A DNA stretch of 23,883 bases from a virus (Duplodnaviria > Heunggongvirae > Uroviricota > Caudoviricetes), in the IMG/VR virus record IMGVR_UViG_2563366840_000003, one strand, 5' to 3'. Shown in pieces: positions 4,067 to 23,189 of the stretch (positions are counted from its first letter, which is position 1; the number at the start of each line of letters is the position of its first letter). The notes under the pieces are model-generated. The model was not told the origin of the DNA. It saw only the letters and a program-made list of their open reading frames with translations, and made no database searches. The translations under genes and the position numbers were made by a program.

Positions 4067-4102
4067 GCGGCGATATTACACTAATATATTTATTAGAGCA
4101 AT
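4066..4102 (-). promoter_or_regulatory. C1-type operator (4086-4102) overlapping the -35 of a leftward promoter (-10 TAATAT at 4078-4073)
   Basis: Minus strand reads ATTGCTCTAATAAATAT, 16/17 to the P1 C1 operator consensus ATTGCTCTAATAAATTT as recalled; TTGCTC serves as -35, with a 17-nt spacer to TAATAT. Confidence 0.55.
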
Positions 4103-6357
4103 ACACCCAAAACGTCATGAGCTACACCTCGAGTGTCCCCCTTACAAGACACAGAACGTCTGGCAAAAAGAGGTTCCACTCTGAAGCCACTGTCATGATA
4201 AAGCTCTCTGATGTTTGGCGCGCCACTGTTAGTAATGAGAACCTTTGCACCTCGACGATGAGCATCCGTCAACAGAGACACCAGGCGTTTTTGCTCTTCA
4301 AACTTAAAGTCATGACCGGAATAGTTCGTGAATCCCTCTGTATTTGGAAGCGGTTCATACGGCGGATCGCAAAAGATGACATCTCCTTCTCCGGCAGCTT
4401 CAATCACCGCTGCAAAATCACCGCATACAAACTCAGACCGCCCTTCCGCACCGAGGAAGGCTTCCATCTCCTGTAATGGGAAATACGGAGTTTTATACTT
4501 CCCGTAACCGACATTGAACTCACCGGCCTGGTTGTAACGCGTCAATCCGTTAAAACAATGTCGGTTCAGGAACAAAAACGCCGCTGCGCGATGTAAATCA
4601 TCATAGACTTGTTTGTTAAACGCATTCCGTACTGCCAGGTATCCTTCCTGTGTGTTGTAGTCCTGGAAGAAACGATGCGCCAGTGTGATAAGTGAATGCG
4701 CCTCGCGTTGCAGAGTCTTGTAAAAGTTAATCAGGTCAGCATTCACATCATTTAGCAGATTTTCCTGGTATCCGGCATTCGTGAAGACAGCTCCGCCACC
4801 GACAAAAGGTTCGATCAGGCGCTTCCCTTCTGGCAAATAGCGAAAGATTTGTTCCAGAACACCAAATTTTCCACCAGCCCATTTGAATATGGACCGTTCG
4901 AATTCTGCCGCTGGTTTAACTTTTCGCTCTTTTGTTTCACTTCCTTCTTTCTGCCGACATACGGCCTTAGTAATCCGATCGCCAATCCAGCGCATTACTG
5001 GTATTGCCATACTATTGCCGATCGCTTTGTAACGCGGTCCGTCAGCTGCAAGCATCGCGGCCTCTTCTTCGCTTAAATCTGGATAGTGATTGCGAAGATA
5101 TGCCAGTTCATCTGAATTAACTTTTTTACGCTTTTCCGTCGGGATCAACGTATGCCCATCAGGAAAACCTTGCAGCCTTTCACATTCGACAGGGGTAAGA
5201 CGGCGGACAGCTACTTCTGCGTTTCTTACTTCATAGCAAACAGCTGTTGGATTTTTAGCCATTAGAGATGGTGAAGTATTCTTAGTTGCAGCATGTTGTG
5301 TACCGCTCATACGCTCAGGAAAAGCCAATGTAACAAGATGCTCATGGCTTTCTTGCTCTCGTGCCCGCAATGTACCATGCCCTTCTGACCAAAAACCTGC
5401 TCCTGTGCTGCTAAAAACGGCAAGGTCAGTGGCATCTTTAAAATCTCTTGCCTTTACTGTCGATGCGGTTTCATCGTCAATATATTCCCCAAATGCTGCC
5501 ATCCTGAAAGCGTTTACGGCTTTCGTCGATTTCATACCGGGTGGCATGTCAGCATGTAGGCATGGATTTAGGCTTTCGCCACTGATTGCAGCGCCATTTG
5601 CAATAATGGCGGAAGCGATTTCCTTCTTTTTTCGGCTCGGCGCAATATTCCGGCGCACGCCTTCGAACTCAAAAAGTACCGTTGCGGGATCGAGGTCTGT
5701 TCGAGCACTTGCGACAACAAACACGCGTCGGCGTCGTTGTGCCACTCCGAAGTATTGGGCATCAAGGATTCTCCAGGCCACCTTTCGCTGCGGTCCATAA
5801 ATACAACCACACTGCGGCCACTTTGGAGCATGGCAACCGGTTTTGCCATCCCACCGCCAGAACGCGTTACTTTTTCCTGATTCAGGTCGATCACCTGGTT
5901 CAAATGGCGCATCTTCTCCAGCCAATCCGGCAAGGAAACATCCGAAGGCGTTATCTGCCGATGACAGGACTCCTGGGACATTTTCCCAGACGATAACTGT
6001 CGGTTTGAGGAAGGACTCAGACCGTTTGTCGTCAATTGCATTTGCAAGCTCCACATACTTCAAAGTTAGCGCGCCGCGTTCATCATCAAGCCCACCACGT
6101 AAGCCCGCGATACTGAATGCCTGACAAGGCGTACCCCCGACGAGCACATCAGGGGATTCGATTTCCCCAGCCAGGACTTTTTTGGCAAGTTTTGTCATGT
6201 CGCCAAGGTTGGCGACATGGGGCCAGCGGTGCGCAAGAACGGCAGATGGAAAAGGCTCGATTTCAGCAAACCACGCCGGACGCATACCCAACGGTTCCCA
6301 GGCAATACTCGCGGCTTCAATTCCACTGCAAACAGATCCATAGCACAGCTCTTTCAC
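4093..6357 (-). CDS. dmt: bifunctional DNA methyltransferase: N-terminal C5-cytosine MTase fused to C-terminal Dam-type N6-adenine MTase
   Basis: 754 aa. The N-half has C5-MTase motifs in canonical order ([34 protein letters not shown]). The C-half aligns with E. coli Dam ([14 protein letters not shown]...[10 protein letters not shown] vs FLKWAGGKY...EPFVGAGSVF; CDPPYEP vs CDPPYAP). Start overlaps the upstream gene's stop. Confidence 0.85.
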
Positions 6358-7259
6358 TGCTTAGCCTCTCCACCAAGGGCATTTACCAGAGCATCAACCA
6401 GGCACGAAATTTCACTGGTCAACAGGAAGAAATCTGCGTCCAGTCGCTGCGCAACATCTTCACTATCAATATCAGAGTTCTGCTCAAGCAATTCATCCGC
6501 AAATTTGACGCTGGTAAGGCTGAAGTTATGGTCCAGTGTAAATTTAATGCGGTTCTGCCAGTCGAGTGCCAACTTAGTAACGAGCTTGCCAGCTTCCAGG
6601 TGTGTGGAAATTTCATCGCTTCCCAAATCCTGCTTTTTCACTCGGGCAATACCGCCATCCTCAAGCACTGCCTTAAGTTCTGCCGCATCCCCCATTTGAA
6701 ATCCCTGTGGAGCACTACCATCACGTACCCAGTCGGTCAGCGTTAATTCAATGGGATTTTCAACACTCAGGGGAACAACAGGAAGAGAACCCAGAGACTT
6801 ACGCATAAGCGCGAGCATATCCTCTGCCTGCCGCGCGCTGGCATTGATATAGATACGTTTAGTTGAACCGTCGTAGATCGCCTGGATAACAGAAAACTTT
6901 GAAAAAGCCCGTGGCAGAAGAGAATGCAGAACTTCGTCTTTCAGGGAGTCCTTCTCTGTTTTCTTCAGTTTACGCGCTTGTTCTTGCTCAAGTTTTTCAA
7001 TTTTTTCTTGAATAGCTCGCTGGATAACCGGCGGGGGAAGAATTTTTGTTTCGCGCTTTGCTTCAACAAGGATAAAACCATTTCCATGCATAGCGATAAC
7101 TTCGGAATTATCACCAAATGGAGATACAAAACCGAACTTGGCCATATCCTGACTACCGCATGGCGTGAAAAGGATCATTTTCTTTTTATCTTCTAAGTCG
7201 GTCAGATCCGCCTCACGAGAAAGTTTATAAATAGTAATGTTTTTCCAGTGCTTAAACAT
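6354..7259 (-). CDS. rdgC: RdgC-family recombination-associated protein (P1 hrdC-like)
   Basis: From the internal ATG at 7259 the 301-aa product [16 protein letters not shown]...[13 protein letters not shown]...[30 protein letters not shown]...LGGEAKQ aligns end-to-end with E. coli RdgC as recalled. The ORF-track N-terminal extension to 7373 lacks homology. Confidence 0.85.
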
Positions 7260-7536
7260 GTTGTAACCCTTGAATATCAACCACAGAAAGCTCGTCTTTG
7301 TAGAAAAAGGCCAGGTTGTGGCACCCCCTCGTTTGAGCGTATGAGCTGGGACCAATTTCGTTCTTCCAGACAAATGGCTTCAAATCCGTACGGCGAAGCA
7401 TAAAAACGCGATTTGTTCCGCTCTGATTCCCAATGAGGCAAAAGCCTTCTTTCACCTTGATAGCCTGCAAGTTGTCGAGTTCACCGCTGGTTACACGGCT
7501 ATCGAACTCCTTGCGGCTTATTAGCTCCATCTGCAT
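7252..7536 (-). CDS. small hypothetical protein, first gene of the rdgC-dmt operon
   Basis: ORF track gives 7252-7608 from a TTG that lies inside the operator; an internal ATG at 7536 has GGAG 8 nt upstream and is the more likely start (94 aa). Its 3' end overlaps the rdgC start by 8 nt. Confidence 0.45.
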
Positions 7537-22640: not shown

Positions 22641-22858
22641 AAACCCCCCTGAACGTCGGCAGAGAAGGGGAGGCTCCAGTAACTAAGTGAATTGCGCGAG
22701 TTAGTTGAAAAACGGGCAGTAAAAATGCAGGGGCCATCAGGCAATTGAGAGCGTGCTTCGTCTTCAGTTGCTGCGATAACGAAGTGATAGTGGTGTTTTT
22801 TACAGGAATAGAAACGCCAGATGAATTCTGGGCGTGCGCAAGGATTGGCATTAACCAT
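22637..22858 (-). CDS. icd: Icd-like small protein (73 aa) translationally coupled to ant
   Basis: 73 codons, the length I recall for P1 Icd; TGA overlaps the ant ATG; the 22615-22851 ORF in another frame is rejected. Confidence 0.45.
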   Translation of the reverse strand: MVNANPCARPEFIWRFYSCKKHHYHFVIAATEDEARSQLPDGPCIFTARFSTNSRNSLSYWSLPFSADVQGGL

Positions 22859-23149
22859 AGTTACGGCCTCACAATCAGGTTTAACAACCTGCTACCCGCT
22901 GCTAAACAGGTGGCAGGACGTGACGGGGTTAGCAGACTGGCGATTGTGAAACCAGCAGGCCGAAGCCTCCCCATCACGCCCCACCATAATTTGGGCGTAA
23001 CGCGGTTTTACGGACACAAAAATACCGCAATATCGGATATCTGCGGCTGTCCGCACAATCATTCAGGCTGCTAAACCCGGTCGCAGAATTTGCTACGACG
23101 GCGGAACTATAAGCCTGAACGATTAAAAGGTCAATATGATGCGAAAAGA

Positions 23150-23189
23150 TAGCATTCGTGACTTAAAAATACAAATTTATTAGAGCATT
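23150..23189 (-). promoter_or_regulatory. C1-type operator (23173-23189) overlapping the -35 of the promoter for the icd-ant leader
   Basis: Minus strand reads AATGCTCTAATAAATTT, 16/17 to consensus; 17-nt spacer, TAAGTC at the -10 position. Confidence 0.5.

Follow-up and report, generated by a model that had tools for sequence, protein, structure and literature searches.

Operators of the C1 immunity repressor type in a P1-like phage-plasmid segment, orthologous site by site to those of bacteriophage P1

Mapping of the operators that the immunity repressor C1 of bacteriophage P1 recognizes dates back to the late 1980s. C1 binds as a monomer. A search of the C1 protein returned no Pfam domain match. 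The published operator consensus is ATTGCTCTAATAAATTT, and the 22 operators of P1 are asymmetric 17-mers that are dispersed over the whole genome (PMC8546580), whereas the lambdoid CI/Cro operators OR and OL are clustered palindromes. Both systems are alike in that an immunity repressor occupies sites overlapping early promoters, but in P1 the C4 antisense RNA, the antirepressor Ant and Coi add further layers of control. The P1 reference genome annotation gives the C1 operators base by base (NC_005856 / AF234172), and C1 binding as well as C1-dependent repression are known for the P1 orthologues of the operators described below (PMC8546580, PMC9948254).

The window, i.e. the whole stretch of 23,883 nucleotides analysed here (IMG/VR virus record IMGVR_UViG_2563366840_000003), is about 98% identical to P1 (NC_005856) from position 1502 to 23584, and its best plasmid matches show 99% identity over 92% of its length. 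It contains the following predicted C1 operators, which are given with the evidence for their assignment:

4086-4102, minus strand: operator Op72a (Obana; P1 label 'monovalent C1-controlled operator'), ATTGCTCTAATAAATAT; P1 annotation and matrix
4075-4091, plus strand: operator Op72b (Obanb), ATTACACTAATATATTT, 19.5 bits; P1 annotation and matrix
7608-7624, minus strand: operator Op68 (Odmt), ATTGCTCTAATAAATAT; P1 annotation and matrix
21503-21519, minus strand: operator Op53 (OrepL), TTTGCTCTAATAAATTT; P1 annotation, matrix and PMC9948254
23173-23189, minus strand: operator Op51 (Oc4), AATGCTCTAATAAATTT; P1 annotation and matrix
19738-19754, minus strand: truncated operator Op55 (Orlf), ATTGCTCTAAT before and CTGGAG after the break, 7.2 bits

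Op72a, Op68, Op53 and Op51 each deviate from the consensus ATTGCTCTAATAAATTT by a single mismatch and Op72b by three. With up to three mismatches allowed, the consensus is matched five times in the window compared with 0.16 expected matches, a number that none of 100 dinucleotide shuffles reached. A weight matrix derived from nine P1 operators, none of which is homologous to the sites in the window, assigned 20.3 to 24.0 bits to the four minus-strand sites (19.5 to 24 bits if Op72b is included); the next-best unrelated site in the window scored 9.6 bits and the top site of 100 Markov simulations 18.0 bits. The initial annotation had reported four 17-bp sites on the minus strand that match a P1 C1 operator consensus. 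All four are present at these coordinates, the consensus given there equals the published one (PMC8546580), and the P1 annotation places C1 binding sites at exactly these positions. The total of four has to be corrected to five full sites, since Op72 is bivalent, plus the truncated Op55; Op72b and the Op55 remnant had both been overlooked. A similar density in unrelated DNA, which had been named as a refuting observation, was not seen: no site with three or fewer mismatches was present in 165 kb of E. coli DNA from unrelated chromosomal and prophage regions, where the top score was 15.4 bits. On the basis of this control DNA and of the differing geometry of the sites, a generic A/T-rich or promoter element was rejected.

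The homologous positions in the P1 record carry protein_bind features for 'phage repressor C1' (Obana/Op72a, Odmt/Op68, OrepL/Op53, Oc4/Op51). The P1 operators are associated with the same genes and share relative position, strand and orientation with their equivalents in the window, and the 17-mers of Op68, Op53 and Op51 are identical. The same operator set is present in other P1-like phage-plasmids (P7, RCS47, SJ46 and many IncY or p0111 plasmids). With high confidence, we interpret the sites as operators for the C1 repressor of a temperate phage-plasmid of the P1 type and as orthologues, site by site, of Op72a/b, Op68, Op53 and Op51 of P1. The assignment is carried by the directly observed sequences, their statistical excess, the fact that they are orthologous to operators and promoters annotated in P1, and the conservation in relatives; C1 binding and repression in this particular element are probable by analogy with P1. 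The finding is correct but ordinary, as these are long-known binding sites of the C1 immunity repressor.

Each operator overlaps or abuts a P1-annotated sigma-70 promoter, with a geometry that varies from site to site. The hexamers of P1ban, Pdmt, P53 and P51a are identical to those of P1. A strict sigma-70 scan around the operators recovered P51b only; the other four promoters are weak and were neither confirmed nor contradicted by it.

4073-4101, minus strand: promoter P1ban, -35 TTGCTC (4096-4101), 17-nt spacer, -10 TAATAT (4073-4078); sequence and P1 'sigma 70 promoter P1ban'
7579-7608, minus strand: promoter Pdmt, -35 TTGTTT (7603-7608), -10 TACCAT (7579-7584); sequence and P1 'sigma 70 promoter Pdmt'
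21509-21537, minus strand: promoter P53 (PkilA), -35 TGGATC (21532-21537), -10 TCTAAT (21509-21514); sequence and P1 annotation
23146-23175, minus strand: promoter P51a (P2c4), -35 TTTGTAT (23169-23175), -10 TATCTT (23146-23151); sequence and P1 annotation
23106-23134, minus strand: promoter P51b (P1c4), TTGACC-17-TATAGT; consensus scan and P1 annotation

Four transcription units had been proposed as the regulon, namely a tRNA island, a small-protein/rdgC/dmt operon, kilA-repL and an icd-ant leader. Based on the P1 annotation, they correspond to the tRNA/tci leader of the ban operon, uhr-hrdC-dmt, kilA-repL and c4-icd-ant, respectively, whose predicted control and composition are as follows:

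1505-4072, minus strand: Op72-controlled ban operon, proximal part, including a dicF-like region
3345-3420: tRNA-Asn, in the proximal part of the ban operon
3267-3342: tRNA-Thr, in the proximal part of the ban operon
2110-2535: tciA, in the proximal part of the ban operon together with tciB and tciC
1760-1835: tRNA(CAT), in the proximal part of the ban operon
4093-7536, minus strand: Op68-controlled operon uhr-hrdC-dmt
7252-7536, minus strand: uhr
6354-7259, minus strand: hrdC (RdgC family)
4093-6357, minus strand: dmt (bifunctional methyltransferase)
19758-21433, minus strand: lytic replicon kilA-repL, predicted to be repressed via Op53
20633-21433, minus strand: kilA
19758-20603, minus strand: repL, with oriL inside
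21597-23112, minus strand: immI operon (c4-icd-ant)
23060-23112, minus strand: a1b1 targets
22906-22991, minus strand: C4 antisense RNA
22637-22858, minus strand: icd
21597-22640, minus strand: ant1/ant2

Upstream of the ban operon, Op72a and Op72b are inverted and overlap by 6 bp, thereby forming the 28-bp bivalent operator Obanab, whose layout is the same as that of Obanab and Oc1ab in P1; the bivalent architecture at ban is shared with the phage. Op72a extends into the last codons of dmt, and the pair is kept in all related loci that reach this position. Op68 is located directly upstream of the Pdmt -35 hexamer, with which it has one base in common. All 74 relatives have Op68 at position -365 relative to the start of hrdC (identical in 66), and 78 of 78 have Op53 at -86 relative to the ATG of kilA, but these relatives, retrieved with KilA and HrdC, are about 99-100% identical in those proteins and provide weak evolutionary leverage. 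The -10 hexamer of P53 is situated within Op53, and its -35 hexamer contains a GATC Dam site; C1 represses kilA-repL at this overlap of operator and promoter (PMC9948254). The final three nucleotides of Op51 overlap the -35 hexamer of P51a. Most relatives retain the Op51 core GCTCTAATAAATTT, whereas the first three bases of the operator vary, and the 5' flank together with the first bases differs among immI types. The second promoter, P51b, follows the operator Op51 about 39 nt further downstream with no overlap, thus indicating that C1 alone does not control c4-icd-ant.

The mechanism can be adopted from P1. C1 expressed from immC, about 25-45 kb away, would bind each asymmetric 17-bp site and block RNA polymerase at the sigma-70 promoter that the operator overlaps or abuts. 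The bivalent operator would cover the -35 hexamer and spacer of P1ban, Op68 would act from just upstream of the Pdmt -35, Op53 would cover the -10 and start region of P53, and Op51 would overlap the edge of the P51a -35. In a lysogen, the lytic replicon, the C1-sensitive promoter of the antirepressor operon, the methylase operon and the ban/tRNA operon would be kept off, and inactivation of C1 by Coi or Ant would lead to the joint release of all four units.

An explanation that dispenses with a repressor would be that the 17-mer is a shared promoter module of paralogous promoters, composed of a TTGCTC -35 hexamer and an A/T-rich spacer. It resembles the promoter rule of the initial annotation, which had read TTGCTC as a -35 in all four sites with a hexamer 17 nt downstream. 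This rule holds for Op72a, where TTGCTC-N17-TAATAT coincides with the annotated P1ban, but it fails elsewhere. Op51 reads ATGCTC, and the hexamers 17 nt downstream of the three other sites (TATGTC, TAAGTG, TAAGTC) are poor. The annotated P1 promoters of Op68, Op53 and Op51 use different hexamers, relative to which the operator occupies three different positions, and none of the four TTGCTC-N17 arrangements passed a standard sigma-70 consensus scan. Given, moreover, the opposite orientation of Op72b and the lack of an associated promoter at the truncated Op55, we attribute practically no weight to a pure promoter module and retain the operator interpretation.

Whether the operators are still in use has to be weighed against the mosaic structure of the segment. 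A Mu-like prophage end has been inserted a short way upstream of the ban position (junction 1504/1505), it interrupts the ban operon short of that position, and it occupies the place downstream of Op72 where P1 harbors ban. Exact matches of the invertase protein came from chromosomal Mu-like prophages only, which identifies the left 1.5 kb as the end of a transposable prophage. The 30-nt sequence of the left junction had no match in genome_contigs, viral_contigs and metagenome_contigs, the junction-spanning ORF had no exact match, and no record among the E. coli complete genomes and plasmids spanned the junction; a Mu-like end beside trnI was found in none of the deposited records searched. 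At the other end, an IS1 element is located in the sim region (23585). The flanking of the P1-like DNA by a Mu-like end and IS1 means that the element could be rearranged or defective. The operators would then be relics in a P1-derived fragment devoid of C1, unused 17-mers kept merely by recent descent. In accordance with this scenario, the P1-like DNA is broken at both sites, none of the collections searched contained the exact replicon, and c1 is not within the window, as the initial annotation had stated (tblastn with P1 C1, best E = 2.1). However, all genes under the operators are intact, and they share 98-100% identity with functional genes of P1 or of P1-like elements. Unrepressed kilA is reported to be lethal (PMC9948254), and the presence of an intact kilA thus argues for a repressor in the host cell; judged from P1 biology, lytic replication would be driven by repL if it were not repressed. 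Contig IMGVR_UViG_3300045988_158986, the nearest relative, shows 99.97% identity over a length of 13.5 kb, carries the rare Op72 substitution of the window and harbors a c1 gene that is 99% identical to that of P1, with adjoining Op99-type operators. kilA and c1 occur together on at least 12 large related contigs, and P1-like plasmids that are otherwise complete commonly carry inserted IS and other mobile elements. From these relatives we infer the presence of a cognate repressor, and we regard relic operators as very unlikely compared with operators that serve a functional C1 regulon.

Two differences from P1 concern the operators themselves. A single substitution at position 4087, found in one of 74 relatives, alters position 16 of Op72a (T to A) and position 13 of Op72b (A to T) and thereby changes the two overlapping sites of the ban operator at once. 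The second difference is Op55, which is whole in P1 but cut in the window, where hok/sok stands in the place of rlfA/rlfB. The homology to P1 ends after operator position 11, and the exchange between rlfA/rlfB and hok/sok falls exactly behind this core position. The resulting hybrid half-operator ATTGCTCTAATCTGGAG retains 11 of 17 consensus bases versus 12 of 17 for P1's own Op55, and judged by its sequence it may be a weak site or else a relic. The arrangement of half-Op55 and hok/sok is the majority form (57 of 70 relatives). A more far-reaching interpretation, which we consider improbable, is that in P1-like genomes the conserved 11-bp operator core ATTGCTCTAAT serves as a boundary between modules or a recombination joint, that the hybrid half-Op55 may still bind C1, thereby placing the neighbouring hok/sok addiction module or post-repL termination under repressor influence, and, separately, that the 4087 substitution might retune C1 occupancy at P1ban.

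P1-like plasmids frequently carry resistance genes in Enterobacteriaceae. The value of the operators for annotation is that the window represents a segment of a P1-like phage-plasmid and that its four transcription units would belong to the immunity regulon, which predicts that the c1 gene must sit at another place on the replicon. The truncation of Op55 where two modules meet, the double-acting substitution in the ban operator and the Mu-like insertion are small additions to the mosaicism of P1-like plasmids.

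In a megablast search of phage genomes, window positions 1502-23584 are about 98% identical to the reverse strand of P1 (NC_005856, 47745-71267), with P7 and many P1-like phage-plasmids about as similar to the window as P1 itself. At the sequence level, Pfam (Dmt as a C5 plus N6 methylase, the RdgC-family HrdC, KilA, Ant and the TerB-like TciA), Rfam (C4 antisense RNA, its a1b1 targets, sok and three tRNAs) and ARAGORN (three tRNAs) confirm the gene content expected of P1-like DNA. The parA/parB and oriR/repA-proximal region (9408-13600) differs from that of P1, ParA having 403 aa in the window versus 398 in P1. 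P1 covers only 80% of the window and the top plasmid matches 92% at 99% identity, which together with the divergent parA/parB points to a maintenance module of non-P1 type.

The C1 binding sites annotated base by base in the P1 reference record were mapped onto the window and provide the operator names:

4086-4102, minus strand, Obana (formerly Op72a)
4075-4091, plus strand, Obanb (Op72b)
7608-7624, minus strand, Odmt (Op68)
21503-21519, minus strand, OrepL (Op53)
23173-23189, minus strand, Oc4 (Op51)
19738-19754, minus strand, truncated Op55 (Orlf), ATTGCTCTAATCTGGAG, with the first 11 bases of P1 Op55 kept

Because the P1 record annotates C1 sites at these positions, the four sites of the initial annotation are P1 operators that have long been known, and the fifth completes the 28-bp bivalent ban operator Obanab as its second half. 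The observation is thus confirmed, its interpretation as a C1 regulon is essentially correct, and the feature itself was already known in every detail. According to PMC8546580, P1 has 22 C1 operators, whose asymmetric 17-bp consensus is ATTGCTCTAATAAATTT, identical to the one given in the initial annotation.

Allowing up to three mismatches to ATTGCTCTAATAAATTT, a search of the window recovered all four minus-strand 17-mers with one mismatch each, in agreement with direct reading of the sequence, and Op72b on the plus strand with three. Dinucleotide shuffles predict 0.16 matches versus the five observed, a number reached in 0/100 shuffles. With a weight matrix built from nine P1 operators that are not homologous to the window's sites (Oref, Omat, Olpa, Oc1a-e, Orlf), the five score 19.5-24.0 bits, the next-best window position 9.6 bits, and the best position over 100 Markov-simulated windows 18.0 bits. 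The motif is not similarly dense in unrelated DNA: 165 kb of E. coli sequence, chromosomal and prophage, contained no site at three or fewer mismatches and a maximum of 15.4 bits. The proposed four copies are all present, but the full sites number five, since the ban operator is bivalent, and a truncated sixth (Op55) has to be added. The TTGCTC ascribed to each copy is slightly inexact, as Op51 reads AATGCTC and hence ATGCTC.

The four proposed regulon units correspond to those of the P1 annotation:

Minus strand, Op72ab/P1ban unit: dicF-like region, tRNA-Asn, tRNA-Thr, tciA-C, tRNA(CAT)
Minus strand, Op68/Pdmt unit: uhr, hrdC, dmt
Minus strand, Op53/P53 unit: kilA, repL (oriL inside repL)
Minus strand, Op51/P51a unit: a1b1 targets, C4, icd, ant1/ant2

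The dmt stop codon region falls inside Op72a. ARAGORN assigns the tRNA at 1760-1835 (minus strand) as tRNA-Met with anticodon CAT; its P1 orthologue is annotated as tRNA-Ile2 (CAT, ileX-like), a tRNA that would require modification to lysidine. In P1, the Op72ab/P1ban operon extends on into ban. Left of 1505 (1-1504), the window consists of the terminal part of a Mu-like transposable prophage:

281-796, minus strand, tail-collar fragment
845-1426, plus strand, Pin/Gin-type serine invertase

The prophage terminus, ending in GCGCATCA, meets the P1-like DNA roughly 30 bp upstream of the ban start position in P1, so that the C1-controlled ban transcript runs into the prophage end and the operon is interrupted before ban. 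In E. coli chromosomes, the identical invertase end borders eight different, unrelated contexts, of which one genome accounts for four; the window adds a ninth context. The left-junction 30-mer is absent from genome, viral and metagenome contig collections. To the right of 23584 (23585-23883), a copy of IS1A interrupts the sim region shortly past Op51. Plasmid NZ_CP061756 (IncY, E. coli O18ac:H14, Uruguay) has this junction in identical form, and the nearest IMG/VR contig ends within this IS1.

Promoter positions were transferred from the P1 annotation to identical window bases, and P51b was recovered by a strict consensus scan:

4096-4101 and 4073-4078, minus strand, P1ban, -35 TTGCTC and -10 TAATAT
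7603-7608 and 7579-7584, minus strand, Pdmt, -35 TTGTTT and -10 TACCAT
21532-21537 and 21509-21514, minus strand, P53, -35 TGGATC (Dam site inside) and -10 TCTAAT
23169-23175 and 23146-23151, minus strand, P51a, -35 TTTGTAT and -10 TATCTT
23134 to 23106, minus strand, P51b, TTGACC-17-TATAGT

TTGCTC had been proposed as the -35 of every site with a hexamer 17 nt downstream, which holds for P1ban only; Pdmt, P53 and P51a use other hexamers. The downstream hexamers of sites 1 to 4 (Op72a, Op68, Op53, Op51) are TAATAT, TATGTC, TAAGTG and TAAGTC, of which only TAATAT resembles a -10, and the strict scan found no TTGCTC-N17 arrangement. Op68 lies directly upstream of the Pdmt -35, Op53 covers the -10 of P53, and Op51 overlaps the P51a -35 by three bases. 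Judged from these positions, operator-promoter overlap is site-specific rather than uniform. When C1 occupies Op53, it overlaps P53 and turns kilA and repL off (PMC9948254). The second promoter of the c4-icd-ant (immI) operon, P51b, is located downstream of Op51 and does not overlap it; in P1 immunity this promoter is constitutive and supplies lysogens with C4 RNA. A plus-strand hairpin with a 13-bp stem and a following T run (21560-21589) lies between ant and kilA, just upstream of Op53, and resembles a terminator of the antisense RNA made from PaskilA (P53as), annotated inside kilA in P1.

The truncated Op55 lies four bases past the repL stop codon. P1 Op55 reads ATTGCTCTAATTATAAC; the window retains bases 1-11, and P1 homology ends exactly there, the exchange leaving ATTGCTCTAAT joined to CTGGAG. 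Instead of the rlfA/rlfB of P1, the window contains a hok/sok-type toxin-antitoxin module (19275-19757) with sok at 19418-19592 (Rfam); hokD is annotated in a related plasmid. The hybrid junction is the majority form among P1-like relatives (57/70), and 13/70 have a full Op55.

Relatives were retrieved from IMG/VR with KilA (78 loci) and HrdC (74 loci). All 78 KilA-retrieved loci have Op53 at -86 relative to the start of kilA, and nearly all have an Op51 homologue with two or three variable first bases; most keep its core GCTCTAATAAATTT, with an upstream flank that differs between immunity types. Op68 is present in 74/74 HrdC-retrieved loci (identical in 66), where the Op72a/b pair is also retained. 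As these relatives are 99-100% identical in protein, the conservation is weakly evidential of selection. A substitution relative to P1 at 4087, within the 6-bp overlap of the ban operator, alters position 16 of Op72a and position 13 of Op72b together, and with them the final base of the predicted P2ban -10. Among the 74 relatives, only IMGVR_UViG_3300045988_158986 has it too; this contig matches window 17136-23639 and 2357-9410 at 99.97% identity.

The repressor gene had been placed outside the window, and tblastn with P1 C1 found no c1 there (best E = 2.1), as expected for a gene that maps to 93-94 kb in P1. The closest contig, IMGVR_UViG_3300045988_158986, has a c1 99% identical to that of P1, flanked by Op99-type operators. 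Expression of kilA is reported to be lethal (PMC9948254), and the intact kilA of the window is a further argument that the host cell contains a repressor. Given this gene and the c1 of the closest contig, C1 is likely encoded in the window's own replicon.
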